Shown here: piece by piece, positions 11,575 through 50,048 of the stretch
How positions within the stretch are numbered: position 1 is the first letter of the stretch
How the letters are laid out: each line of letters begins with the position of its first letter
Origin: Enterobacteria phage vB_EcoM_IME339
DNA: 64,000 nucleotides
Reading direction: 5' to 3' (one strand)
Sequence record: MH051915
Made by a program: the position numbers and the translations under genes
Notes under the pieces: model-generated
What the model saw: the letters and a program-made list of their open reading frames with translations, nothing else
Database searches by the model: none
What the model was told of the DNA's origin: nothing

Positions 11575-12360
11575 TTATACTCTTGCACCATATATTGTAC
11601 CAACTTTAGTCCAAGTTGGAGCATTACCAGTAACAGCTTTACCTGCTGCACCGCCGTTATATTCTGATCCTTGACCGCGAATATTACATTTACCTCCTGC
11701 GGCACCGGCATCACCACCATTCCCGCCATTATAGATACCGTTGACAGACCCTTTACCGGGAGCAGAAATAGTACCAGCAGTAGCACCTTGTTCCATATTA
11801 GCAGACCCACCAGCAGCGCCAAATGGACGACCGCCGCCACCGCCAAAGGTTAATCTCATTTGTGAAAAAGGAGAATAATACCCGCCGCCACCGCCGCCAC
11901 CGCCGCCTGCGATAACACCATTGTTGTTAATACGTAATCTAGTTCCAATTCCGTTATTTATTGCAGTTCCTCCTGCTCCACCGGCAGAGTTATTTCCGCC
12001 ATTCCCGCCACGGCCCCAAACATGCACGCCTGAATTGATATTAAGTGTCACATATGCATTAGTTAATGAGCTAGGAAAATCTAAGCATGGAACACCAGTA
12101 GATTGAGAAACAATATTTCCTGTAATAGTAATAACAACAGGCGTGGACCCTTGTGCTTTTATCCAGTTTATTAATGTATCTTTATTATAAGAATTACTAG
12201 CACCAATGCTATAATATACTTCTTTAGATTGTCCGGCCATTGAGCTCATCCAACCGGGAACTGAAACACGGACTGCTCTCATTGCAGCATCCATCCAACG
12301 TTGTCCAGTTTCATTCACGGCAGATTCACCAATCCAGCCAGGAACACCTACAATTGCCAT
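11575..12360 (-). CDS. 38: gp38 receptor-binding adhesin, T2-type with glycine-rich motifs
   Basis: 261 aa; N-terminus MAIVGVPGWIGESAVNETGQRWM as in T2-family gp38; several poly-Gly blocks; T4 gp38 is a 183-aa chaperone instead. Confidence 0.8.
   Translation of the reverse strand: MAIVGVPGWIGESAVNETGQRWMDAAMRAVRVSVPGWMSSMAGQSKEVYYSIGASNSYNKDTLINWIKAQGSTPVVITITGNIVSQSTGVPCLDFPSSLTNAYVTLNINSGVHVWGRGGNGGNNSAGGAGGTAINNGIGTRLRINNNGVIAGGGGGGGGGYYSPFSQMRLTFGGGGGRPFGAAGGSANMEQGATAGTISAPGKGSVNGIYNGGNGGDAGAAGGKCNIRGQGSEYNGGAAGKAVTGNAPTWTKVGTIYGARV
11829..11907 (-). repeat. (GGN)n low-complexity repeat encoding poly-glycine motifs inside gene 38
   Basis: ccgccgccaccgcc runs on the plus strand; translated GGGGGGGGG on the minus strand. 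Confidence 0.7.
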
Positions 12361-12390
12361 TAAAAATCCTTAGAGGGCCGAAGCCCTCTT

Positions 12391-15300
12391 TTACATAAGT
12401 TTAGATTCAAGTTCTTTTACACGAGAAGAAAGCGTTTTCACAGCTTCAACCAGAAGAGCAATCTGGGCTTGAGAAGAAACAGTGAGTATTTTATTACCCT
12501 TTCTATCTTCTGTTTCACGGACAGCTTCTGGTAAAACGTCTTGTAACGTTTGAGCCACAATACCCGCTTCAGTTTCAATTGCCTCTCCACCGATGTATTC
12601 AGCTTTATCGTAAATGACACCGTTAAGTTTTTCAACTTTATCAAGTGCATTTTCGATAGGTTTGAAGTTGGATTTTAAACGAATATCAGAACGAATATAA
12701 ACGTTTGGAGCATTTATATTTTTGTATGAGTACAAATCACCATTTTGGAAACGGAATACTTGTACGCTGTTCGCATATATGTCTAATAATCCATCGCCAT
12801 TTTGCTTAATACCAGTATCGTTATCACCAAATGTTATACTGTTTCCACCGAGACCATTTGATGTATTGACACCAAAGGCACCTGTTTGTGGTAGCAGTAC
12901 TTTACCAGGGCAGTCTAGAGTACCGTCCATTGTAAAGCGCCATCTTGCTTGCTGGCCATTAGCATTGTCGCCACGTATACGAATAATACCATCACGCCAT
13001 CCAGCGGTGGTACCAGAGCCGACCCATCCAAATTCAAAGGTTTGGCGATAACCCGCCGAGCCGTAGTTACTGTATGCACCTACAATAGGATAATAACTGC
13101 CTGAATTAGATAAATCCCCATGGTCTGCCATAAAGGTGATTTTAGATTTCATTGTATCCGAGTTATCAGCCCAACCAGACGCTCCTCGCCAACCTGCTAC
13201 TACACGAGACGAGATATTACCTAAACTAGTATTACCACTAGTAACATTCAAGCCACCAGTAACATTCAAGCCACCGCCGGTAATATTTAGACCATGGTTC
13301 ATACCAACGCGACCATCAGCCATATTAATGGAGAAAGGTCTTAAATTATTCCAATCACCACTAGCCGCATTGGGTTTTTCTGACGTATTCTTGTCTGTAG
13401 CTAAAATATAAAAACTTCCACCATCATTTCGAATGATAGCAGCATTCGAATCAATATCATTACCTCTGGATTTAATACGTAAACCTTTTTGGTTATTGGT
13501 AACAAATTCACCACGAGTAACAACATCAGATTCGCCAGCAGCAAACATTCCATCGATGTTATTCAATAATCTTACAGTTTTACCTACTACATGACCTTCT
13601 GGAAGTGTTTCAACAATAGGTTGAATTCCTCCGTTAAGACCGACTACGGTTACTGTACTATTACTGGTGCATGAATATTCGATGACTAAAGCATTTGAAT
13701 ATCCTCCCACATAAACATAAACGTCATATGTATCATTGCTCGTGTTAACTGTGGCAATTTGTGAAAATGCTTCAGAAGTTCTGTTCCATAATGTAGCGTT
13801 AAGTCCTTTAGGATTATTATTTCCAGTTCTAAGAATTATTTCTGCGACAGAAGCTTGCCCATAACTTTTAAAATTAAATCCTGAACCGCCATATATTTTA
13901 AATGCTACTGTTCCAGTAGATTGAGGAATATTAACTGTCGCAAACTTATACCATCCAGTTGTGGCTCCGCCTGACCAACCACCAACATCGACTTTATTGT
14001 TTAACGTTGTATTTAAGTTGGCAAAATTACCAGTACCGCCTGTGATGTTGCCATCTGTACCAATTCGAATATTATTAATTTTAAGAGGCTTAGTAATATC
14101 GACAGTATCAGAGTTTAATGCAATACCATGTGAATAGGTGTAGTTATGCATACGAACGACGTTTCCGCCATCGCCAATACCTAAATACCATTTTGTAACA
14201 TCCGCTTTACGTCCTTGGATAAAGTTAGACGCTGCTTGAGAAGAAGCATTCAAAACAATACCGTCGGAATCCATGTTAACACGAAGTCTAACATCGGTTT
14301 GAACAAATTTTGATACGTTATCAATAGTAAGCAAATTTTTTCCAGCTTGTGTATGATTGCCCATCATAACACTGCCATTTGCGAGATTGATGGTAAATGG
14401 GCGTAAATTACTTATTCCACCACTTTCGCCAGCATCTTTAGGAGTTGGGATAATATAAAAGTTAGTTTCCGAACGACGGAAAATAGCACCGTATTCAGCA
14501 TTCCAAATTCTTAATGCATCAGCAGTTCCGCCAAATTTGGCTTGGCCGTTTATAGACATTCCGTTATTAGCAACTAAACTTGATTCAGTAACAATAGAAC
14601 CGGAAGCAGTAATACCACCAGAAGTTAATAAACCACCATTAACTCGGAGTTGAATAGGCCCGACAGTCGAACCAGGTGCAGGAGCTACGCGTTGAGAATA
14701 AAAATGGTAACCTTGCCCATCTGATACTTCAAAGACTGTTTCACGATTACGATCACCAGATGCGTTAAATGAATTTCCCCATGCTTTAACTGTAACAGGG
14801 CTTTTGTTTTGACCTGCGCGAGTACCACTGTTCCAGTATATACTTCTAGTACCATCTGCAGCCGTCGGGGCGTTAAACTGGAATCCCTGATTATCAGGTC
14901 CATCAATAATTATGCCTTTATTAAGACGAAAAGCTAATGTAGAATTAATACTTCCAGTTGCGGCATTAAAGCTAATACTTTCACCGCCGGTGGTTAACTT
15001 CAATATACCTGGGTTAACGTCTACACCTTCCTGAGTATTAATATTAGTTTTGCCTTTACCGCGGAAATAATGACTCATTTTACCGCCAGCATTGTACCCA
15101 ATATGCGTCTGGCCGTCTCCAGCATTGTTATTATCAGCTTGCGTTTGAACAGACAAGAAAGCGGCATTAGTGCCAGGCATAATCCATGTGGTGCCTTGGT
15201 CCTCGGAACGACCAAATATACCTTTACGAGTACTACGGAAACTGTCAGGAGTAATAGAAGCAACAGAATATCCACCGCCAACTAGATCAAATACACCAGT

Positions 15301-16239
15301 TTTTTTGTATGACAAGCCAGTTACAGTGTCACCGAGAACAAGATATTTATCGCCCATTACACCGACGTTGCCATAATCACTAGACGGGAAATTTGTAGTG
15401 AATGTACCTAATGCAAGGCTATTACGGCCTGCCATTCGTCCGTCATTACGAATGCCATATTGTTTAGATGATGGAGTATTACCTGTCCACCAAGACATTT
15501 CATCAGCCTGGCCAGTCTGAGCAGTACAAAGCTCATGCCACATAGTGCCACCTGATTTAGCTCGAACTTTACGAAGATAGTTTACACCATTTGTTTCACC
15601 GGTTCCAGGATAAACATACTGAACTAATGATTGTGAATCGTATTGTCCAAAGGCTTTAGAATCATGATTAATTAAATTAACACTAATAGTTGGTGTACTA
15701 ATAGAAGTTAAAGCAGTTAATTTGCGTGCCTGGAAGATACCACCATCAGTAGAAATGAAATGAAATTCTGAATTTTGAGCTCCCGCAGCGGTTCCTTGAC
15801 GAACACGCATTGTAATTACGCCTTCATTTTCAGACTGCGGTTTTGAATATAAAACGCCACGTTCTGAGCCATTTGTATTTTCAAACCAAAGATGGGCATT
15901 TGCAGTATCATTTATTGCTCTTGTATAAAATGAACCGGATGTTGATCTGAATACTGTAGCAGAAACAATATTACTTGCCGTAATAGTACCACTTGTAGAA
16001 AAATTTCCAAAGTTGTTTATTGGTCCATTGACGCGTAAAGTTCCATCAATAGTTACATTTCCATCAATTTGACCTCCTTTAGCAATACCTAGATCAATGA
16101 TATTTCCTGAATCATCTTTAGTAAAAATTGTTCTATCTTTTAAGTTTATAGCCAATTCACCTTCGGCTAATACTGAAGCAGCAGGACGTGCACCTGCGGT
16201 TTTGCTTCTTTTAAATTGTATTTGTTTTAAAGTAGCCAT
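12391..16239 (-). CDS. 37: long tail fiber distal subunit gp37 with C-terminal intramolecular chaperone (peptidase S74-like) domain
   Basis: 1282 aa (T4 gp37 is 1026 aa); C-terminal region carries [11 protein letters not shown]...LDKVEKL...[15 protein letters not shown]...LLVEAVKTL, matching the self-cleaving chaperone family. Confidence 0.85.
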
Positions 16240-26327: not shown

Positions 26328-27359
<1,032 letters not shown>

Positions 27360-27360
<1 letters not shown>

Positions 27361-28220
27361 TGAAACAATACCAATTTTTAATTAAAGATATCCTGGAAAA
27401 CGGTTATGAAACCGATGACCGAACAGGCACAGGAACAATTGCTTTGTTCGGTACTAAATTACGCTGGGATTTAACTAAAGGTTTTCCTGCAGTAACGACT
27501 AAGAAGCTTGCCTGGAAAGCTTGCATTGCTGAGCTCCTTTGGTTTTTATCAGGAAGCACAAATGTTAATGATTTACGATTAATTCAACACGATTCATTAA
27601 TTCAAGGCAAAACAGTCTGGGATGAAAATTACGAAAATCAAGCAAAAGATTTAGGATATCATAGCGGTGAACTTGGTCCAATTTATGGAAAACAGTGGCG
27701 TGATTTTGGCGGTGTAGACCAAATTGTAGAAGTTGTTGATCGTATTAAAAAACTGCCAAATGATAGACGTCAAATTGTTTCAGCATGGAATCCGGCAGAA
27801 CTCAAGCAGATGGCATTGCCACCTTGTCATATGTTCTATCAGTTTAATGTGCGTAATGGCTATTTGGATTTGCAGTGGTATCAACGTTCGGTAGATGTTT
27901 TCCTCGGTCTTCCATTTAATATTGCATCATATGCTACGTTAGTTCATATTGTAGCTAAGATGTGTAATCTTATTCCAGGAGATTTGATATTTTCTGGTGG
28001 TAATACTCATATCTATATGAATCACGTAGAACAATGTAAAGAAATTTTACGTCGTGAACCTATGGATTTATGTGAATTACAATTAAAATTTCCAGATGAA
28101 TTTGATGAATGGGGCACAGAATCTCAGGTATTTTGGTTGAGTCAATTCGCAAAGCCACATAATTTTGTTCTTAACAACTATGTATCTCATCCGCCAATTA
28201 AAGGAAAGATGGCGGTGTAA
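27360..28220 (+). CDS. td: thymidylate synthase, uninterrupted (no group I intron)
   Basis: 286 aa from MKQYQ; one continuous frame where T4 carries the intron. Confidence 0.9.
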
Positions 28221-31093: not shown

Positions 31094-32272
31094 ATGAGCA
31101 CAGTTTTTAATACAAATCCAGTTGATGTTTTAAAAGAACCTATGTTCTTCGGTTCAGGTCTTGGTATTGCACGTTATGATATTCAACGCCATAAAGTTTT
31201 TGAAGATTTAACCGAAAAGCAATTGTCATTTTTCTGGCGTCCTGAAGAAGTAAACTTGATGATGGATGCTGCACAATTTAACAAGCTTCCTCAATATCAG
31301 CAAGATATTTTTACTAATAACCTGAAGTATCAATCACTTTTGGATAGCATTCAGGGTCGTGCGCCGTCTGCTGTACTTATATCATTAATTTCAGACCCAA
31401 GTCTTGATACATGGGTTGCTACATGGACTTTTAGTGAAACTATTCACAGCCGTTCATATACTCATATCATGCGAAATCTTTATACTGATCCGTCAAAGGT
31501 ATTTGATGAGATTGTACTAGATAAAGCTATTATGAAACGTGCTGAGTCCATTGGTCGCTATTACGATGATGTTCTTAAGAAGACCCGTGAATGGGAAAAT
31601 GCTAAAGAATTTGTAGAACTAGCTAAAGAATCTCCTGATGCTGATTTTCGTTTAAATCGAGCTATTAAACAAGAAGCCGAAGCTAAACGAGCACTAATGA
31701 AATCTCTTTACCTCTGCCTGCATGTAATCAACGCATTGGAAGCTATTCGTTTTTATGTATCTTTCGCATGTACCTTTAACTTCCATAAGAACATGGAAAT
31801 CATGGAAGGTAATGCCAAGATTATGAAGTTCATTGCTCGTGATGAACAGCTACACCTTAAAGGCACCCAATATATTATTCGTCAACTTCAGCTTGGCACT
31901 GATGGTGATGAATGGGTTAAAATCGCCCAAGAGTGTGAACAAGAAGCAGTTGATATTTTCATGGAAGTTAACCGTCAAGAAAAAGACTGGGCAGTTCATT
32001 TATTTAAAGATGGCGATGTTCCTGGATTAAATACAAATAGCATGTGGAGCTTTATTGATTACTTAACTGTATCTCGTATGAAACAGTGCGGTCTTCCATG
32101 CCCAATTACTGATGCTCCGGTTAAACATCCGTATCCTTGGATTCGTGAATATCTTAATTCTGATAATGTTCAATCAGCGCCACAAGAAGTAGAACTGTCA
32201 TCTTACCTTGTTGCACAGATTGATAATGATGTTGATGATAAAGTTATGATGAGTTTTAAAAAATATTTTTAA
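31094..32272 (+). CDS. nrdB: aerobic ribonucleotide reductase small subunit, uninterrupted (no intron)
   Basis: 392 aa continuous frame; only about 50 bp between nrdA and nrdB. Confidence 0.9.
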   Translation: MSTVFNTNPVDVLKEPMFFGSGLGIARYDIQRHKVFEDLTEKQLSFFWRPEEVNLMMDAAQFNKLPQYQQDIFTNNLKYQSLLDSIQGRAPSAVLISLISDPSLDTWVATWTFSETIHSRSYTHIMRNLYTDPSKVFDEIVLDKAIMKRAESIGRYYDDVLKKTREWENAKEFVELAKESPDADFRLNRAIKQEAEAKRALMKSLYLCLHVINALEAIRFYVSFACTFNFHKNMEIMEGNAKIMKFIARDEQLHLKGTQYIIRQLQLGTDGDEWVKIAQECEQEAVDIFMEVNRQEKDWAVHLFKDGDVPGLNTNSMWSFIDYLTVSRMKQCGLPCPITDAPVKHPYPWIREYLNSDNVQSAPQEVELSSYLVAQIDNDVDDKVMMSFKKYF

Positions 32273-42237: not shown

Positions 42238-42688
42238 GTTAGAGATTAGAAGCAATTTTAGATGGCCATCATGTGCATTAAGTAATTTCGCCCAATGGCC
42301 TTTTGTTATGGATGGTATCCAATTTGGAGGTCTCGAAGGATTCCTCCAAGGATGCAAGGTGAAAAATGTTGAACAACAGCGTCGTATATTTGGGTTATCC
42401 GGGCTTGCCGCCCAACAAGCTGGAAGGTCTTATGCAAGAGCTCAGGACCGTGGCACGTTGTTCTGGCTTGGAACTCCGTTTTCAAGATATTCCGAAGCAT
42501 GGAAAGAATTATACACAAATGCATATTTTGAAGCAGCGATCCAAAACAAGGGATTTCGCAATGCATTACAAGCCTCGAAAGGAAAAGTTTTGAAGCATAG
42601 CATGGCTAGTGGTCTAACAAAAGATGATACAATACTAACCGAAGCTGAATTTATTGATGTGTTAAACCTATTAAGAGACTCTCTATGA
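42224..42688 (+). CDS. NADAR/YbiA-like (DUF1768) protein, candidate ADP-ribose-processing hydrolase
   Basis: N-terminal block CALSNFAQWPFVMDGIQFGGLEGFLQGCKV resembles the YbiA/NADAR signature; about 154 aa, typical family size. Confidence 0.5.
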   Translation: MKMSELEIRSNFRWPSCALSNFAQWPFVMDGIQFGGLEGFLQGCKVKNVEQQRRIFGLSGLAAQQAGRSYARAQDRGTLFWLGTPFSRYSEAWKELYTNAYFEAAIQNKGFRNALQASKGKVLKHSMASGLTKDDTILTEAEFIDVLNLLRDSL

Positions 42689-43548
42689 AGCCAACTATTT
42701 TGACTGATATTGATGGAGTATGTTTAAGCTGGCAATCAGGCCTTCCTTATTTTGCTCAGAAATATAATCTTCCATTAGAACATATTTTAAAAATGATCCA
42801 AGATGAGAAATTTATTTCTCCAGGTAAACTCTTTAATTGTGACGAAGAACTTGGCGTCAAGTTAATTGAAAAATACAATCGTTCAGATTTTATTCGTTAT
42901 TTGTCTCCGTATAAAGATGCCCTGTGTGTAATTAACAAATTAAAAGAAGATTATAATTTTGTAGCTGTTACAGCATTGGGTGATTCTATTGACGCTCTGT
43001 TGAATCGTCAATTTAATTTGAATGCTCTTTTTCCTGGTGCCTTCTCAGAAGTAATGATGTGTGGTCATGATTCTTCAAAAGAAGAGTTATTCAAAAAGGC
43101 AAAAGAGAAATATAACGTAATTTGTTATATTGACGATCTCGCTCACCACTGCGACCATGCGAGTGAAATATTAAATGTTCCGGTTTATTGGATGGCTCGA
43201 GGAGAGCGTGATAAAATTCCAAAAACTGCGCAGCGAGTTTATACATGGAATGATGTAGAAAATAAGCTTTTTTCACCAAAGGAAAATAAAGAAAGTTTTG
43301 ATAGTGAAAAAGCTATAAAAGATGTAATTGAGAAGATGGTTAAAAACGATTCTTTTCGTTGGAACACTACCTGGAGAACTCCTGGATTTAATCCGTATAA
43401 TCCATATTATACACATCCATATAATCCATATTATACACACCCGTATCATATGAATCCATTCCATACGTGGAGTTATACCAAGCCTGGCGATGCAGGGTAT
43501 TTTAATAGATTTACTAGTGGTGATAATATTTTCCAAGGAGCATTCTAA
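42685..43548 (+). CDS. HAD-superfamily hydrolase-like protein (nucleotidase-like N-terminus) with Tyr/Pro/His-rich repeat tail
   Basis: HAD motif I LTDIDGV near the N-terminus; C-terminus NPYNPYYTHPYNPYYTHPYHMNPFHTW. Confidence 0.5.
   Translation: MKPTILTDIDGVCLSWQSGLPYFAQKYNLPLEHILKMIQDEKFISPGKLFNCDEELGVKLIEKYNRSDFIRYLSPYKDALCVINKLKEDYNFVAVTALGDSIDALLNRQFNLNALFPGAFSEVMMCGHDSSKEELFKKAKEKYNVICYIDDLAHHCDHASEILNVPVYWMARGERDKIPKTAQRVYTWNDVENKLFSPKENKESFDSEKAIKDVIEKMVKNDSFRWNTTWRTPGFNPYNPYYTHPYNPYYTHPYHMNPFHTWSYTKPGDAGYFNRFTSGDNIFQGAF
43393..43440 (+). repeat. 24-bp tandem repeat (2 copies, near-identical) inside the HAD-like ORF
   Basis: ccgtataatccatattatacacat / ccatataatccatattatacacac. Confidence 0.7.
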
Positions 43549-43817
43549 TGTTTGTCGTTCACACTATTTATGAAAATGAAGGTAATACTACGCGTGATTA
43601 CGGTCACGTAAATCAATTTTTTAGATGCAATCCAGAGTTCCGAGCTCAAAAGGATGAACGAATTTTTAAAAAATGTGTAGAGCAAGGTTTCATTTATATC
43701 AAGCACTGGATGCAAGGAAATAAAGTTAGAACTACATATCATAGGTCTTTAACTGAGCTTAATGATGAATTGATTTATAATAGAGCTGTAAATCAAACTC
43801 TGAAGGATGAACAATGA
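43548..43817 (+). CDS. hypothetical protein (89 aa)
   Basis: ORF with TAATG overlap. Confidence 0.5.
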   Translation: MFVVHTIYENEGNTTRDYGHVNQFFRCNPEFRAQKDERIFKKCVEQGFIYIKHWMQGNKVRTTYHRSLTELNDELIYNRAVNQTLKDEQ

Positions 43818-45277
43818 TTCTTAAAATTCTGAATGAAATAGCATCTATTGGATCAACTAAGCAGAAGCAAGCAATTCTTGAAAAGAATAAAGATAATGAA
43901 TTGCTTAAACGAGTATATCGTCTGACTTATTCTCGTGGGTTACAGTATTATATCAAGAAATGGCCTAAACCTGGTATTGCTACCCAGAGTTTTGGAATGC
44001 TGACTATTACCGATATGCTTGACTTCATTGAATTCACGTTAGCTACTCGGAAATTGACTGGAAATGCTGCAATTGAGGAATTAACTGGATATATCACTGA
44101 TGGTAAAAAGGATGATGTTGAAGTTTTGCGTCGAGTTATGATGCGAGACCTTGAATGTGGTGCTTCAGTATCTATTGCAAACAAAGTTTGGCCAGGTTTA
44201 ATTCCTGAACAACCTCAAATGCTAGCAAGTTCTTATGATGAAAAAGGCATTAATAAGAATATCAAGTTTCCAGCTTTTGCACAGCTAAAAGCAGATGGAG
44301 CTCGGTGTTTTGCTGAAGTTCGAGGTGATGAATTAGATGATGTTCGTCTTTTATCACGAGCTGGTAATGAATATCTAGGATTAGATCTTCTTAAGGAAGA
44401 GTTAATCAAAATGACTGCTGAAGCCCGCCAGATTCATCCAGAAGGTGTGTTAATTGATGGCGAATTGGTATACCATGAGCAAGTTAAAAAGGAACCAGAA
44501 GGCCTAGATTTTCTTTTTGATGCTTATCCTGAAATTAGTAAAGCTAAAGAATTCGCCGAAGTAGCGGAATCTCGTACTGCTTCTAATGGAATCGCCAATA
44601 AATCCTTAAAAGGAACCATTTCTGAAAAAGAAGCTCAATGCATGAAGTTTCAGGTCTGGGATTATGTCCCGTTGGTAGAAATATACGGTCTTCCGGCATT
44701 TCGTTTAAAATATGATGTACGTTTTTCTAAACTAGAACAAATGACATCAGGATATGATAAAGTAATTTTAATTGAAAACCAAGTAGTAAATAACCTAGAT
44801 GAAGCTAAGGTAATTTATAAAAAGTATATTGACCAAGGTCTCGAAGGTATTATTCTCAAAAATACCGATGGATTGTGGGAAAATGCTCGTTCAAAAAATC
44901 TCTATAAATTTAAAGAAGTAATTGATGTTGATTTAAAAATTGTAGGAATTTATCCTCACCGTAAAGACCCTACTAAAGCGGGTGGGTTTATTCTTGAATC
45001 AGAGTGTGGAAAAATTAAAGTAAATGCAGGTTCAGGCTTAAAAGATAAAGCCGGTGTAAAATCGCATGAACTTGACCGTACTCGCATTATGGAAAACCAA
45101 AATTATTATATTGGAAAAATTCTAGAGTGCGAATGCAACGGTTGGTTAAAATCTGATGGCCGCACTGATTACGTTAAATTATTTCTTCCGATTGCGATTC
45201 GTTTGCGTGAAGATAAAACTAAAGCTAATACATTCGAAGATGTATTTGGTGATTTTCATGAGGTAACTGGTCTATGA
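43814..45277 (+). CDS. 30: ATP-dependent DNA ligase
   Basis: 487 aa, same length as T4 DNA ligase; N-terminus MILKILNEIASIGSTKQKQAILEKNKDNELLKRVYRLTYSRGLQYYIKKWPKPG matches T4 ligase; catalytic KADG motif. Confidence 0.95.
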   Translation: MILKILNEIASIGSTKQKQAILEKNKDNELLKRVYRLTYSRGLQYYIKKWPKPGIATQSFGMLTITDMLDFIEFTLATRKLTGNAAIEELTGYITDGKKDDVEVLRRVMMRDLECGASVSIANKVWPGLIPEQPQMLASSYDEKGINKNIKFPAFAQLKADGARCFAEVRGDELDDVRLLSRAGNEYLGLDLLKEELIKMTAEARQIHPEGVLIDGELVYHEQVKKEPEGLDFLFDAYPEISKAKEFAEVAESRTASNGIANKSLKGTISEKEAQCMKFQVWDYVPLVEIYGLPAFRLKYDVRFSKLEQMTSGYDKVILIENQVVNNLDEAKVIYKKYIDQGLEGIILKNTDGLWENARSKNLYKFKEVIDVDLKIVGIYPHRKDPTKAGGFILESECGKIKVNAGSGLKDKAGVKSHELDRTRIMENQNYYIGKILECECNGWLKSDGRTDYVKLFLPIAIRLREDKTKANTFEDVFGDFHEVTGL

Positions 45278-45462
45278 AAGCTTACTTAGAAACAATTGTC
45301 GTTGCTCAAAAAGAAGGTGGAGATGTTTCTACTTCTGTATCACAAATTATGATTGAATTTATAGATGCATATGCTTATAATAAATTCACAGAAACATTTG
45401 ATGCCTATGAAAAAGGTCCAAAGTTTGAAATATACCGTACTCTCTTACCAATAGATTATTAA
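45274..45462 (+). CDS. hypothetical protein (62 aa)
   Basis: ORF with ATGA overlap to ligase. Confidence 0.45.
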   Translation: MKAYLETIVVAQKEGGDVSTSVSQIMIEFIDAYAYNKFTETFDAYEKGPKFEIYRTLLPIDY

Positions 45463-45485
45463 AGGCCTTCGGGCCTTTAATTTTA
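45461..45485 (+). terminator. terminator-like hairpin
   Basis: aaaggccttcgggccttt followed by A/T-rich tract. Confidence 0.5.
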
Positions 45486-45514
45486 TAAATAGAATAAACA
45501 CTAGAGAGGATATG

Positions 45515-47608
45515 ATGGAACTCATTACAGAATTATTTGACGAAGATACTACTCTTCCGATTACAAACTTAAATCCAAAGAAGAAAATACCACAAATTTT
45601 TTCAGTTCATGTTGATGACGCAATTGAACAACCAGGCTTTCGTTTATGTACCTATACATCTGGAGGTGATACTAACCGTGATCTAAAGATGGGCGATAAA
45701 ATGATGCATATTGTTCCTTTTACATTAACTGCTAAAGGTTCAATTGCTAAATTAAAAGGTCTCGGTCCAAGCCCAATTAATTATATCAATTCAGTTTTTA
45801 CTGTTGCGATGCAGACGATGCGTCAGTATAAAATTGATGCCTGTATGCTCCGTATTCTTAAGTCTAAAACTGCTGGTCAAGCTCGTCAAATTCAACTTAT
45901 TGCTGATAGACTTATCCGTAGTCGCTCAGGCGGCAGATACGTCCTTCTTAAGGAACTTTGGGATTACGATAAAAAGTATGCATATATTCTTATACATCGC
46001 AAAAATGTATCACTAGAAGACATTCCAGGAGTTCCGGAAATTAGTACCGAGCTCTTTACTAAAGTTGAATCGAAGGTCGGTGATGTTTATATCAATAAAG
46101 ATACTGGAGCTCAAGTAACTAAAAATGAGGCAATTGCTGCATCTATTGCGCAAGAAAATGATAAACGTTCTGACCAAGCTGTAATCGTTAAAGTTAAAAT
46201 TTCCCGTAGAGCAATTGCACAAAGTCAATCATTAGAATCTTCTAGATTTGAAAGTGAATTATTCCAGAAGTATGAATCTACCGCAGCTAATTTCAATAAA
46301 CCTGCTACCGCTCCTTTAATTCCCGAAGCGGAAGAAATGAAACTTGGAATTAATTCAATAGCTTCTAAAACTAAGGCAGCAAAAATCATTGCCGAAGGAA
46401 CTGCAGATGAACTTCACTATGATTATAAATTCTTTTCAAAAAGTGAGGTTAATGAAGTTTCTGAAAAAATTAAAGATGTAATTCTTAATGCGATTAAAAA
46501 TGAACCAACTACTTCAATAAAATGTTTAGAGAAATACGCAGCAGCTGTTAATCAATTCTTTGAAGAATATAAAGATAATTGGCTTGATAAACATAATAAA
46601 ACTCGTAAAGGGCAGCCAGATGAAGTCTGGGAAGAAATAACTAAAAATTCCTGGAATGCAGCAAAAACTAAATTCCTTAAAAGAATGATTTATAGCTTTT
46701 CTGGAATTGGTGCAGGTCCAATGATTGATATTACTATTGCCCGTGATGGTTCTAAATATACTCCATCACAAAAGCGCGGCATTAGAGAGTATTGTGGTTC
46801 AGGATATACTGACATCAATAATCTTCTTTTGGGTCGTTACAATCCAGAACGATATGATGTAATGAGTGAAAAAGAAATTGAATCTGCTATAAATAACTTA
46901 GATTCAGCTTTTGAAAATGGCGACCGTATACCAGAAGGCATTACAGTTTATCGTGCTCAAAGCATGACTGCTCCTATATACGAAGCATTAGTTAAAAATA
47001 AAGTATTCTATTTCAGAAATTTTGTATCTACTTCTTTAACTCCTATCATTTTTGGACGTTTTGGAATTACGCATGCTGGTATTGGTCTTTTAGAACCAGA
47101 AGCTCGTAATGAATTGACAGTTGATAAAAATGAAGAAGGAATAACTATTAATCCAAACGAAATAAGAGCGTATAAAGAAAATCCTGAATACGTTAAAGTT
47201 CAAATAGGATGGGCAATTGATGGAGCTCATAAAGTTAATGTTGTATATCCAGGAAGTCTCGGAATAGCAACAGAAGCTGAAGTTATTCTACCACGCGGAT
47301 TGATGGTCAAAGTTAATAAAATAACTGATGCTTCTAATAACGATGGAACAACATCTAATAATACAAAACTCATTCAAGCTGAAGTTATGACTACGGAAGA
47401 ACTCACCGAATCGGTAATTTATGACGGTGACCGTCTAATGGAAACTGGTGAAGTAGTTGCAATGACAGGTGATATTGAAATAGAAGACAGAGTTGACTTT
47501 GCATCATTTGTTTCATCAAATGTTAAACAAAAAGTAGAATCATCTCTTGGAATTATTGCGTCTTGCATAGATATTACAAACATGCCTTACAAGTTCGTTC
47601 AAGGATAA
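45515..47608 (+). CDS. alt: Alt ADP-ribosyltransferase (packaged, modifies host RNA polymerase)
   Basis: About 697 aa from MELITELFDEDTTLPITNLNPKKKIPQIF (T4 Alt N-terminus as I recall it); C-terminal R / STS / ExE ADP-ribosyltransferase motifs (YRAQ, FVSTSL, EAEVILPRG). Confidence 0.85.
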   Translation: MELITELFDEDTTLPITNLNPKKKIPQIFSVHVDDAIEQPGFRLCTYTSGGDTNRDLKMGDKMMHIVPFTLTAKGSIAKLKGLGPSPINYINSVFTVAMQTMRQYKIDACMLRILKSKTAGQARQIQLIADRLIRSRSGGRYVLLKELWDYDKKYAYILIHRKNVSLEDIPGVPEISTELFTKVESKVGDVYINKDTGAQVTKNEAIAASIAQENDKRSDQAVIVKVKISRRAIAQSQSLESSRFESELFQKYESTAANFNKPATAPLIPEAEEMKLGINSIASKTKAAKIIAEGTADELHYDYKFFSKSEVNEVSEKIKDVILNAIKNEPTTSIKCLEKYAAAVNQFFEEYKDNWLDKHNKTRKGQPDEVWEEITKNSWNAAKTKFLKRMIYSFSGIGAGPMIDITIARDGSKYTPSQKRGIREYCGSGYTDINNLLLGRYNPERYDVMSEKEIESAINNLDSAFENGDRIPEGITVYRAQSMTAPIYEALVKNKVFYFRNFVSTSLTPIIFGRFGITHAGIGLLEPEARNELTVDKNEEGITINPNEIRAYKENPEYVKVQIGWAIDGAHKVNVVYPGSLGIATEAEVILPRGLMVKVNKITDASNNDGTTSNNTKLIQAEVMTTEELTESVIYDGDRLMETGEVVAMTGDIEIEDRVDFASFVSSNVKQKVESSLGIIASCIDITNMPYKFVQG

Positions 47609-47611
47609 ATC

Positions 47612-49669
47612 ATGGAACTTATTACAGAATTATTTGACGGCGCTTCGGCGCCGGTTGTTAACTTAAATCCTAAGCATAAAATACCTCAAATTTTTGCTAT
47701 TCAAGCTGGTGAAGAAAGCGTGCTTCCTGGATTTAGATTTTGTACATACACCTCTGGCGGTGATACAAATAAAAACGTTAAGCCAGGCGATAAAATGATG
47801 CATATCGTAATGATAGGTGTTAATGAGAAACTATCATTAGTTAAACTTAAAAACTTGGGTGGAAATCCAATTGGTGTCATTAATGCGGTTTTTGATACTG
47901 CTCTTCAAACAATGAAACAGTATAAAATTGATGCATGCTTATTCCGCGTACTAAAAAGTAAAACAAATGGCGCTGCTCGTCAAATGCAAGTTATTGCTGA
48001 CCGTTTAGTACGTACTAAAGGAGCAGGTCGATATGTTCTTTTAAAGGAAATCTGGGATTATGATAAAAAGTATGCATATATTATGGTTTACCGTAAAAAT
48101 GCCAATTTAGAAGACATTCCAGGTGTACCTCCTATTTCAACTGAGTTATTCACAAAAGTTGAATCAAAGGTTGGTGATGTTTATGTAGATGTTAAAACAG
48201 GTAATGCTGTTCCTAAAGCTGTTGCTGTTGCTGCTTCTATTGCTTTAGAAAATGATAAGCGCACGGATCAAGCTGTTATTCAGAAAACTAAAATTAGTCG
48301 TCGATTAGCAGCACAAGCTCAATATTCTACTGTCGATGCTTCACTACAGGGTGATAGCTTCGCTGCCAAGAAATATCAAGAGTTTGAATCTAAAGTTCCG
48401 GTATATAAAGCAGAAGGACCAATGAACTCTGGCGTTATTCAGATTGGTTCAAACTTCGGCAAAGGAGCTATCGGTGGTATGAGAAGTGCTTCTCGTTTTA
48501 AATCTAACGATTATGAACTAGAAAGCTTCCGAAATCATATTGCATTGGCCCATGCACGTTTACGTGATCCGTCTATCAGGCTGCAGAGCGATATAACACA
48601 TCAAGGTTCTCAAGAATATTTAAAGAATAAAGAATTCTTTGATTATAAAACCGATAAAATTTTGAGCGATCTCGCTGACATTAATATTTCTAATAGCTTT
48701 GATGTTATTAAGAAAATTATCAATGATTTAGTTAAAGGTTCTAAAGCCACGCCAGATGAAAAGGTAGCTATTATTCAATTTGTCATGAATGGCATTTATA
48801 AATTGATTAATGAATCTGCTGCTCAGGCATATGAATACGCAAGCACCGAAGTAACTCCAAAAGGACTGACTCAGGCTGAGTCTAATGTAATTGAAGATTA
48901 TTGTGCAGATTCATATGTTGAAATGAACTCGTTCCTCTTGGGTAAACCAGATTCTACCCGTGAAGAATACATGGAACGAGCTATTAAACACATCGAGACG
49001 CTGGATTCTGCATTCGCCAAAGGATCAGTTCTTCCTCCAGGAACTACGCTTTATCGTGGACAAGAAGTTACTTTTAAAACTTTACGCCATAATATTGAAA
49101 ATAAAATGTTCTATTTCAAGAACTTCGTATCAACATCGCTTAAACCAAATATCTTCGGTGAGCATGGTAAAAACTATATGGCTCTAGATGATTCCGGCGC
49201 AGTATTTTCTGGTGAAGGAGAAGGTTCTGTTGATGCTGAAGATTTAATGCATATGGGTAGTCATTCTGCATATGCTAATGAAGATGCTGAAACTAGCGTA
49301 GGTATGGTAATTAAAGGGGCTGAGCGAATCAAAGTTATCGTTCCAGGTCATTTATCAGGATTTCCATCAGAAGCTGAAGTTATTCTACCGCGTGGAATTT
49401 TGTTGAAGATTAATAAAGTAAGCACGTATATGATGAAAGAAACTGCTTATAACAAGTATCTAATCGAAGGCACAATCGTTCCTCCTTCTGAACAATTAGA
49501 AGAATCGGTATATGATGGCGATCATCTAATGGAAACTGGCGAAGTTCGTCCAATGGCTGGGTTTAATCAATTCCTTGTAGAAGAATCAAAAGAAGAGGAA
49601 AACGAAGTTTCTCAAATCTTGGCTTCTTTGGTTAACATCAACGGAATGTCTAAAAAGTTCAAGATGTAG
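47612..49669 (+). CDS. Alt-like ADP-ribosyltransferase paralogue (tandem)
   Basis: 685 aa; N-terminus MELITELFDGASAPVVNLNPKHKIPQIF and C-terminal YRGQ, FVSTSL, EAEVILPRG shared with alt; central region diverged. Confidence 0.8.
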   Translation: MELITELFDGASAPVVNLNPKHKIPQIFAIQAGEESVLPGFRFCTYTSGGDTNKNVKPGDKMMHIVMIGVNEKLSLVKLKNLGGNPIGVINAVFDTALQTMKQYKIDACLFRVLKSKTNGAARQMQVIADRLVRTKGAGRYVLLKEIWDYDKKYAYIMVYRKNANLEDIPGVPPISTELFTKVESKVGDVYVDVKTGNAVPKAVAVAASIALENDKRTDQAVIQKTKISRRLAAQAQYSTVDASLQGDSFAAKKYQEFESKVPVYKAEGPMNSGVIQIGSNFGKGAIGGMRSASRFKSNDYELESFRNHIALAHARLRDPSIRLQSDITHQGSQEYLKNKEFFDYKTDKILSDLADINISNSFDVIKKIINDLVKGSKATPDEKVAIIQFVMNGIYKLINESAAQAYEYASTEVTPKGLTQAESNVIEDYCADSYVEMNSFLLGKPDSTREEYMERAIKHIETLDSAFAKGSVLPPGTTLYRGQEVTFKTLRHNIENKMFYFKNFVSTSLKPNIFGEHGKNYMALDDSGAVFSGEGEGSVDAEDLMHMGSHSAYANEDAETSVGMVIKGAERIKVIVPGHLSGFPSEAEVILPRGILLKINKVSTYMMKETAYNKYLIEGTIVPPSEQLEESVYDGDHLMETGEVRPMAGFNQFLVEESKEEENEVSQILASLVNINGMSKKFKM

Positions 49670-49722
49670 TTTACAAGTCCCTCGTGTTGTGTTATAGTAA
49701 TTTTACTGACATAACATGAGGA
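49669..49722 (+). promoter_or_regulatory. early promoter-like element, copy 2 of the 54-nt exact repeat
   Basis: Identical to 33891..33944. Confidence 0.5.
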
Positions 49723-49729
49723 ACACAAA

Positions 49730-50020
49730 ATGAAATCTTCTTTACGCTTTTTAGGTCAAGAACTTGTAGTTGAAGGCGTTATTCCTGCTGATAACGCTTT
49801 TAATGAAGCAGTTTATGATGAATTTATCAAAATTTTTGGAACAGATAAAAAGTTCGGAATTTTTCCTTCTGAAAATTTTTCAAAGCCAGAACAGACTGAA
49901 AGCATTTTCCAAGGTGTAGTAACAGGCAAATTTGAGTCAGAAGCTCCGGTAAAAATTGAAGTTTATATTGAAGACAGTTTAGTTGCTTCAGTTGCTGCTT
50001 TTATTTCATTCCGTAAATAA
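49730..50020 (+). CDS. hypothetical protein (96 aa)
   Basis: ORF following the promoter repeat; GAGGAACA SD. Confidence 0.5.
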   Translation: MKSSLRFLGQELVVEGVIPADNAFNEAVYDEFIKIFGTDKKFGIFPSENFSKPEQTESIFQGVVTGKFESEAPVKIEVYIEDSLVASVAAFISFRK

Positions 50021-50026
50021 AAATAT

Positions 50027-50044
50027 GGGGACCTTTCGGTCCCC
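50027..50044. terminator. bidirectional terminator hairpin between convergent genes
   Basis: ggggacctttcggtcccc. Confidence 0.6.
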
Positions 50045-50048
50045 ATTG

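Follow-up and report, generated by a model that had tools for sequence, protein, structure and literature searches.

Why does a T4-like phage carry two large genes of the Alt type side by side, and do their products do the same work? The question is raised by positions 45515-49669 of the window, by which we mean a 64,000-nucleotide stretch of Enterobacteria phage vB_EcoM_IME339 (sequence record MH051915). Here, two open reading frames (ORFs) of 697 and 685 amino acids (aa), referred to as ORF1 and ORF2, follow each other on the + strand and both end in an ADP-ribosyltransferase (ART) signature. The answer that we favor, with good though not complete confidence, is that the pair encodes two late-expressed, head-packaged and injected arginine ADP-ribosyltransferases with different targets; for ORF2, packaging, processing and targets are predicted properties. 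Among injected phage enzymes that reprogramme the host, T4 Alt is the textbook case, with a biochemistry that comes from one allele of one phage: to our knowledge, all of it (the modification of RNA polymerase alpha Arg265 and of other targets) concerns the T4 allele only. The window represents the commoner natural state, two injected-type enzymes and an "Alt" whose catalytic domain shares only 65% identity with the one that was studied. A target of its own, if ORF2 has one, would mean a new step of host takeover or anti-defence and might account in part for the different phenotypes of T4 and T2-like phages.

Architecture and catalytic signature of the pair

The window is part of a T4-like phage genome (Tequatrovirus) and is matched best, at about 98% DNA identity, by Escherichia and Shigella records of that genus; the pair occupies the slot of T4 alt, between gene 30/alt.1 and alt.-3/gene 54. 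ORF1 (45515-47608, + strand) is the alt orthologue by position and carries a T2-type allele. Its longest frame (45512-47608) would give 698 aa, and the second ATG at 45515 gives the 697-aa protein with the MELITE start that is used in the T4 and T2 annotations. The ORF1 stop codon (47606-47608) is separated by a 3-bp spacer from the ATG of ORF2 (47612-49669, + strand), the second Alt paralogue and the full-length form of what is annotated in T4 as alt.-1/alt.-2. The two proteins are 41% identical (BLASTP, E 7e-158), a similarity far beyond chance. Both align over their whole lengths to positions 2-674 of the Alt profile phrog_802 (ORF1 aa 1-696, E 2.6e-272; ORF2 aa 1-685, E 1.4e-255), and both score above the gathering threshold of the Pfam family PF03496, ADPrib_exo_Tox (E 1.6e-37 and 2.4e-20, respectively). 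In precomputed annotations, PF26846 is listed together with PF03496 for nearly all homologues, except for some N-truncated forms.

The proteins share their start (MELITELFD...NLNPK.KIPQIF) and a YDGD.LMETGEV stretch near the C-terminus. The catalytic residues of the R-S-E clade can be read in each: R480 (in YRAQ, 46952-46954), S505-T506-S507 (47027-47035) and E587-A-E589 (47273-47281) in ORF1; R482 (in YRGQ, 49055-49057), S507-T508-S509 (49130-49138) and E587-A-E589 (49370-49378) in ORF2. A sequence-only reading of this DNA had proposed two tandem Alt-type ADP-ribosyltransferase genes of 697 and 685 aa, 3 bp apart, with shared ends and the R/S-T-S/E-x-E signature; this is borne out in each part, by the ORF listing, by BLASTP, Pfam, phrog_802 and structure matches, and by motif reading and alignment. 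In the R-S-E clade, an E-x-E motif marks arginine-specific enzymes and a Q-x-E motif asparagine-specific ones. Both ORFs read EAEVILPRG in the ADP-ribosylating toxin turn-turn (ARTT) region, thus E-x-E and not Q-x-E, and the motif leads us to infer arginine specificity for both.

AlphaFold predicts one architecture for both proteins (ORF1, predicted local distance difference test (pLDDT) 76, predicted template modelling score (pTM) 0.58; ORF2, pLDDT 78, pTM 0.71): the N-domain, of alpha/beta type, extends to about aa 237; helices alone make up the middle; the ART domain then runs to about aa 628, and the tail behind it is modelled with low confidence. In ORF1, the N-domain (aa 1-237, including ITE-6; 45515-46225), which we propose to be a capsid-addressing module, is followed by the helical middle delineated from the AlphaFold secondary structure (approximately aa 238-410; 46226-46744), the ART domain (approximately aa 411-628; 46745-47398) and an LTE motif at aa 630-632 with a C-terminal tail (47402-47605), a proposed propeptide in which pLDDT is low from about aa 650. 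The corresponding parts of ORF2 are the N-domain, again with ITE-6 (aa 1-237; 47612-48322), the helical middle (aa 238-425, phrog_802 positions 247-422; 48323-48886), the ART domain (aa 426-628; 48887-49495) and a protease-type LEE motif at aa 629-631 with its tail (49496-49666), also a proposed propeptide, modelled with pLDDT below 50 at residues 630-636 and 643-685. The modelled ART fold of ORF2 is confident, matches that of active toxins and can be superposed on solved C3/VIP2/iota-like members; by sequence, ORF1 finds weak matches only among PDB chains, CdtA and iota Ia. Taken together, these likenesses argue that ORF1 and ORF2 are functional paralogues of T4 Alt, with four shared parts and a predicted C3/VIP2-type R-S-ExE ART domain.

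ORF2 could still be enzymatically dead, for example a structural accessory of the core or scaffold that has kept the Alt fold. Its lower Pfam score (73 bits against 129 for ORF1) and its lack of a sequence match in the PDB would suit such a role. Against it, R482, S507-T508-S509 and E587/E589 are all present, and the R, S-T-S and E-x-E residues do not vary among 21 aligned, diverse Alt proteins; the ART fold, as modelled, is that of active toxins; and the ratio of nonsynonymous to synonymous substitution rates (dN/dS) relative to T2 is 0.046 over the whole gene, close to the 0.039 of ORF1. This value indicates a maintained gene, not a decaying copy; dS to T2 is about 0.16-0.20, a difference at strain level only. 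A degenerate, non-enzymatic second copy, which the sequence-only reading had named as an outcome that would overturn its proposal, is thus contradicted by the retention of every catalytic residue and by purifying selection, and we consider a dead ORF2 highly improbable.

Divergence between the two copies

How different are the two enzymes? Identity between ORF1 and ORF2 is 68% in the N-domain (aa 1-237), 18% in the helical region (aa 238-425), 37% in the ART domain (aa 426-628), where conserved islands coincide with the motifs, and 42% in the tail. It is lowest, 7-15%, between S-T-S and E-x-E, the stretch that holds the substrate-recognition loops in this toxin clade. The earlier statement that the central 300 or so residues differ strongly is therefore correct for the divergence and needs refinement for its nature, because the two middles are diverged homologues: they fall on the same phrog_802 positions (approximately 245-423; E 2.5e-22 for ORF1 and 1.1e-27 for ORF2).

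Two other origins of this pattern were considered and rejected. Insertion of a foreign cassette does not account for the divergent middles, which share profile positions and helix pattern, and recent gene conversion does not account for the shared ends, given that codons agree at only about 55-60% of the identical N-domain residues; the share of identical codons reaches 82% only in the first 40 codons. Judged by its codons, the N-domain similarity dates far back and has been preserved in the protein sequence, and an ancient concerted evolution of the shared N-domains may have taken place.

The divergence of the helical and catalytic parts (18% and 37%) makes it most likely that each enzyme has host proteins of its own as targets, and a different target specificity of ORF1 and ORF2 is plausible from these comparisons. 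What ORF2 might bind is not indicated by its helical region (aa 238-425), which is recognizable only through the Alt family profile: a phmmer search of 1.84 billion representative proteins returned 0 matches and hence no clue to a partner or function.

As an alternative, ORF2 might be redundant, a dosage copy whose targets are those of Alt (RNA polymerase alpha Arg265 above all) and whose only effect is that more enzyme is injected. The two proteins do share architecture, catalytic signature and the arginine-type E-x-E, and T4 and 90 other records manage without ORF2, as redundancy would allow. Plain redundancy is nevertheless hard to reconcile with identities of 18% in the helical region, 37% in the ART domain and 7-15% in the S-T-S to E-x-E stretch, or with two lineages that have been separate since before the split of Tequatrovirus and Dhakavirus and are under purifying selection. 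We regard a dosage copy as unlikely and retain two enzymes with different targets as the preferred interpretation.

Proposed expression, packaging and processing

Late genes of T4 use a late-promoter octamer motif. An exact match to its consensus, TATAAATA, lies at 45484-45491 (+ strand), 23 nt upstream of the ORF1 start. Just before it, a G+C-rich terminator-like hairpin read from the sequence, AAAGGCC-TTCG-GGCCTTT (45461-45478, + strand), overlaps the alt.1 stop codon; it was missed by the consensus terminator scan, whose rule calls for five or more T within the 8 bases that follow the stem. For ribosome binding, ORF2 is provided with a Shine-Dalgarno sequence of its own, AAGGA; the promoter scan ahead of ORF2 found sigma-70-like matches no better than 9 of 12. 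Directly after ORF2, a sigma-70/T4-early-type promoter for alt.-3 (TTTACA-17-TATAGT with TG; 49670-49698, + strand) marks the end of the ORF1-ORF2 unit. We infer late co-transcription: the TATAAATA promoter at 45484 would drive both genes together, as a single transcription unit, ORF2 having no promoter of its own.

In T4, Alt is a head-internal protein of the prohead core, present in about 40 copies and ejected into the host cytoplasm (PMC9026906). It is described as an ejection protein, in which the prohead protease gp21 cuts after ITE-6 and LTE-619, the latter cleavage removing 63 C-terminal residues (PMC5694885). Protease motifs stand at homologous positions in both proteins of the window, ITE-6 and LTE-632 in ORF1 and ITE-6 and LEE-631 in ORF2. 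LTE-632 of ORF1 aligns with LTE-619 of T4, E6 and E631/E632 are invariant in the Alt family alignments, and in both ORFs the segments beyond the gp21-type motifs are modelled as low-confidence or disordered. We hypothesize that both proteins are brought into the prohead by the parts they share, the N-terminal and terminal ones, that gp21 would trim them after ITE-6 and after the L-x-E near residue 631, and that they would then be injected with the DNA to mono-ADP-ribosylate, at the expense of NAD+, arginines on host proteins, each enzyme probably acting on different ones.

Alternatively, ORF2 might never be packaged and might serve as a late intracellular modifier in the manner of ModA/ModB, its N-domain having a role other than capsid targeting. 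ModA and ModB are proteins of about 200 aa that are expressed early and are not known to be packaged. No demonstration of ORF2 packaging was found in the literature searched, and in PMC9026906 and PMC5694885 the capsid-targeting determinant of Alt is left unmapped, which would leave room for such a role. This alternative must however explain why both gp21 cleavage motifs are found at the positions used in T4 Alt, why the conserved N-domain varies with the phage genus and not with the effector, and why ORF2 adjoins alt at a 3-bp gap behind a late promoter. We find it quite improbable and continue with ORF2 as a packaged and injected protein.

Distribution of the pair and the relic in T4

The sequence-only reading had cautioned that the pair might be conserved in the family and not new, and this caution was well founded. 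ORF2 (middle and ART domain) is found at an identity of at least 95% in about 400 phage records, T2 included (tblastn), and by megablast, 80% or more of the entire 4.9-kb region is covered in 343 records. The tandem layout is also present in T2, ime09 and the Dhakavirus IME341. Both genes are labelled Alt-like ADP-ribosyltransferases in databases. In print, the alt paralogues listed by Nolan et al. (2006) include the full-length duplicate of phage 44RR (PMC1524935). A genome paper from 2026 described two paralogous Alt-like proteins in a Tequatrovirus that are 43% identical and suggested their functional divergence (PMC13600099); two further papers, PMC12373910 and PMC9958956, do not contain "Alt" as a whole word. 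The pair is therefore the usual state in most T4 relatives and is already known at the annotation level.

At position 1, the allele of the window and T2 is found in 312 records at an identity of at least 95%, and the T4-type allele in 162. VEc20 combines a T2-type ORF1 with a T4-type relic of ORF2; going by such records, position-1 alleles and ORF2 states evidently reassort. More broadly, the ART part is detected in 1,221 records at 1,799 places and the N-domain in 1,200 records at 1,817 places (tblastn, phage collection); the two parts are thus distributed alike, and comparing these counts gives no surplus of Alt N-domains in the phage collection that would point to other effector partners.

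What happened to the second gene in T4? It had been left in doubt whether the T4 reference carries an equivalent second large ORF, and it does not: in NC_000866, alt (682 aa) is followed by alt.-1 (61 aa) and alt.-2 (67 aa), which the record explains as the first part of alt, duplicated long ago. Protein and DNA alignments show instead that they are ORF2 itself. Over the first 348 nt of ORF2, the T4 sequence hardly differs from the window; the near-identity resumes with the last 11 nt (49659 onward), and the 1,699 bp between (47960-49658) are absent from T4. The deletion boundary is marked by a 9-bp direct repeat, CTAAAAAGT, at 47951-47959 and 49650-49658 (+ strand), of which the 5-kb region holds just two copies. 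In addition, a run of five A at 47771-47775 (+ strand) is a run of four in T4, the frameshift that separates alt.-1 from alt.-2. With the gap bounded by the CTAAAAAGT repeats, alt.-1/alt.-2 are therefore the microhomology-deletion relic of a full-length second Alt gene.

Evidence against two distinct injected enzymes

Several observations weigh against the interpretation that we prefer. On the side of expression, the late-promoter octamer occurs 10 times in the window against 9.3 expected by chance, so that position is all that argues for the copy at 45484. On the side of function, divergence is the sole ground on which distinct targets are proposed, and the ORF2 sequence matches none of the PDB chains at E 0.01 or better. 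The literature searched for work on the second paralogue contained genome-annotation remarks and no ORF2 experiments; Nolan et al. (2006) was its sole mention of alt.-1 in a phage context, and it turned up no virion proteomics of ORF2. Finally, the gene can be lost: the T4-type deletion junction is found in one piece in 91 records, and truncated ORF2 forms of 624, 528 and 415 aa (P0006, P0008 and P0010), 98% identical and with up to 36 member sequences, occur in public assemblies. This suggests that ORF2 was inactivated repeatedly, and repeated loss means that it is dispensable under at least some conditions.

Mosaic structure of ORF1 and modular evolution of Alt

Comparison of the position-1 gene with that of T4 shows where the family varies. 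ORF1 and T4 Alt are 72% identical overall, with 99% in the N-domain, 35% in the helical region, 65% in the ART domain and 94% in the tail. At the DNA level, identity is 93-100% over codons 1-235 and from about codon 619, and 40-75% between, with sharp breakpoints near aa 235 and 619 (near 46220 and 47370 in the window). The same comparison for ORF2 gives 68% (N-domain), 14% (helical), 36% (ART) and 42% (tail).

The Dhakavirus IME341 has the same layout as the window: ligase, alt.1, two Alt genes (694 and 707 aa, 3 nt apart), alt.-3 and gene 54. Between ORF1 and IME341 copy 1, the ART domains (aa 404-625 of ORF1) share 83-94% identity in DNA and 95% in protein; protein identity is 67% for the helical region and 46% for the N-domain, while the neighboring ligase, gp54 and gp48 of the two phages are only 59-66% identical in protein. 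An ART domain at 95% among neighbors at 59-66% points to an exchange of the position-1 catalytic cassette between phage genera, which may have been fairly recent. In contrast, ORF2 and IME341 copy 2, its positional orthologue, show a uniform DNA identity of 55-65% (46% and 58% in protein for the helical and ART regions), which fits vertical descent.

The N-domains follow yet another rule: the two of one genome resemble each other (68% and 66%) more closely than those of positional orthologues do (42-46%). This fits either an old concerted evolution or a co-adaptation to each phage's own head, and it supports the N-domain as the probable capsid-addressing part, with the helical and ART regions as the effector. 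Tentatively, and with the balance tipping slightly against the whole of it, we propose that Alt proteins are a delivery chassis in which a genus-specific N-domain is kept and ART cassettes are swapped, and that most T-even phages inject two different ARTs, ORF2 having its own target, possibly a defence or stress-response protein, which would have been missed during six decades of work because the laboratory model T4 lost ORF2 through the 1.7-kb microhomology deletion.

Neighboring genes and other features of the window

Upstream of the pair on the + strand lie the DNA ligase gene 30 (43814-45277) and alt.1 (45274-45462, 62 aa). The product of alt.1, the ORF that separates ORF1 from the ligase gene, has a match to PF24647, the "Phage blade protein" family of Pfam (Phage_blade; E 7.5e-29). 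Downstream, alt.-3 (49730-50020, + strand, 96 aa, DUF5498) has its own sigma-70/early-type promoter and a bidirectional terminator (50025-50046), and is followed by genes 54, 48 and 29 on the - strand. T4 mutants in which alt.-3 is extended at the C-terminus escape the CmdTAC defence system (PMC11618068).

Farther away, upstream of gene 30.1 and where T4 has 30.2, a 287-aa ORF (42685-43548) closes with a short peptide repeated in tandem, NPYNPYYTHPYNPYYTHPY; compared with the length implied by the annotation of T4 30.2 (837 nt), it is 9 aa longer. Scanned against Rfam over its full length, the window shows no RNA family and hence no group I intron. T4 td and nrdB both carry introns; the ORFs at 27348-28220 and 31094-32272, which we take from their positions to be td and nrdB, look uninterrupted as judged by position and size only. 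On the - strand, 11575-16239 contains a 1,282-aa ORF followed by a 261-aa ORF in what we assume to be the gene 37/38 position, with sizes that resemble a T2-type tail fibre and gp38 adhesin and not those of T4.

Comparison with known systems

The closest characterized relative of the pair is T4 Alt itself (gpAlt, NP_049811, 682 aa), which has the same genome slot, four-part architecture, R-S-ExE residues and ITE-6 and L-T-E motifs. T4 alt.-1/alt.-2 are the same gene as ORF2, with the difference that they are a remnant of the full-length paralogue, devoid of 1,699 bp and one A. The T2 genes alt and "alt.-1" (AYD82792 and AYD82791) reproduce the arrangement of the window exactly in lengths (697 and 685 aa) and spacing (3 bp), and the ORF2 middle is at least 95% identical in the Alt-like pairs of ime09, Shfl2, HY01 and about 400 other Tequatrovirus records.

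Beyond Alt, T4 ModA and ModB are also phage ARTs of the R-S-E clade that modify host proteins, deployed later in infection and not injected (PMC9503650). The likeness to MuF-fused phage ARTs and polymorphic toxins is one of logic only: these systems, too, join a conserved head-association part to a fast-evolving, exchangeable ART (PMC9503650). Pfam finds no MuF domain in ORF1 or ORF2. The constant ends and exchangeable catalytic cassettes of the Alt proteins suggest that they could be used as a natural chassis for the delivery of proteins from phage heads.

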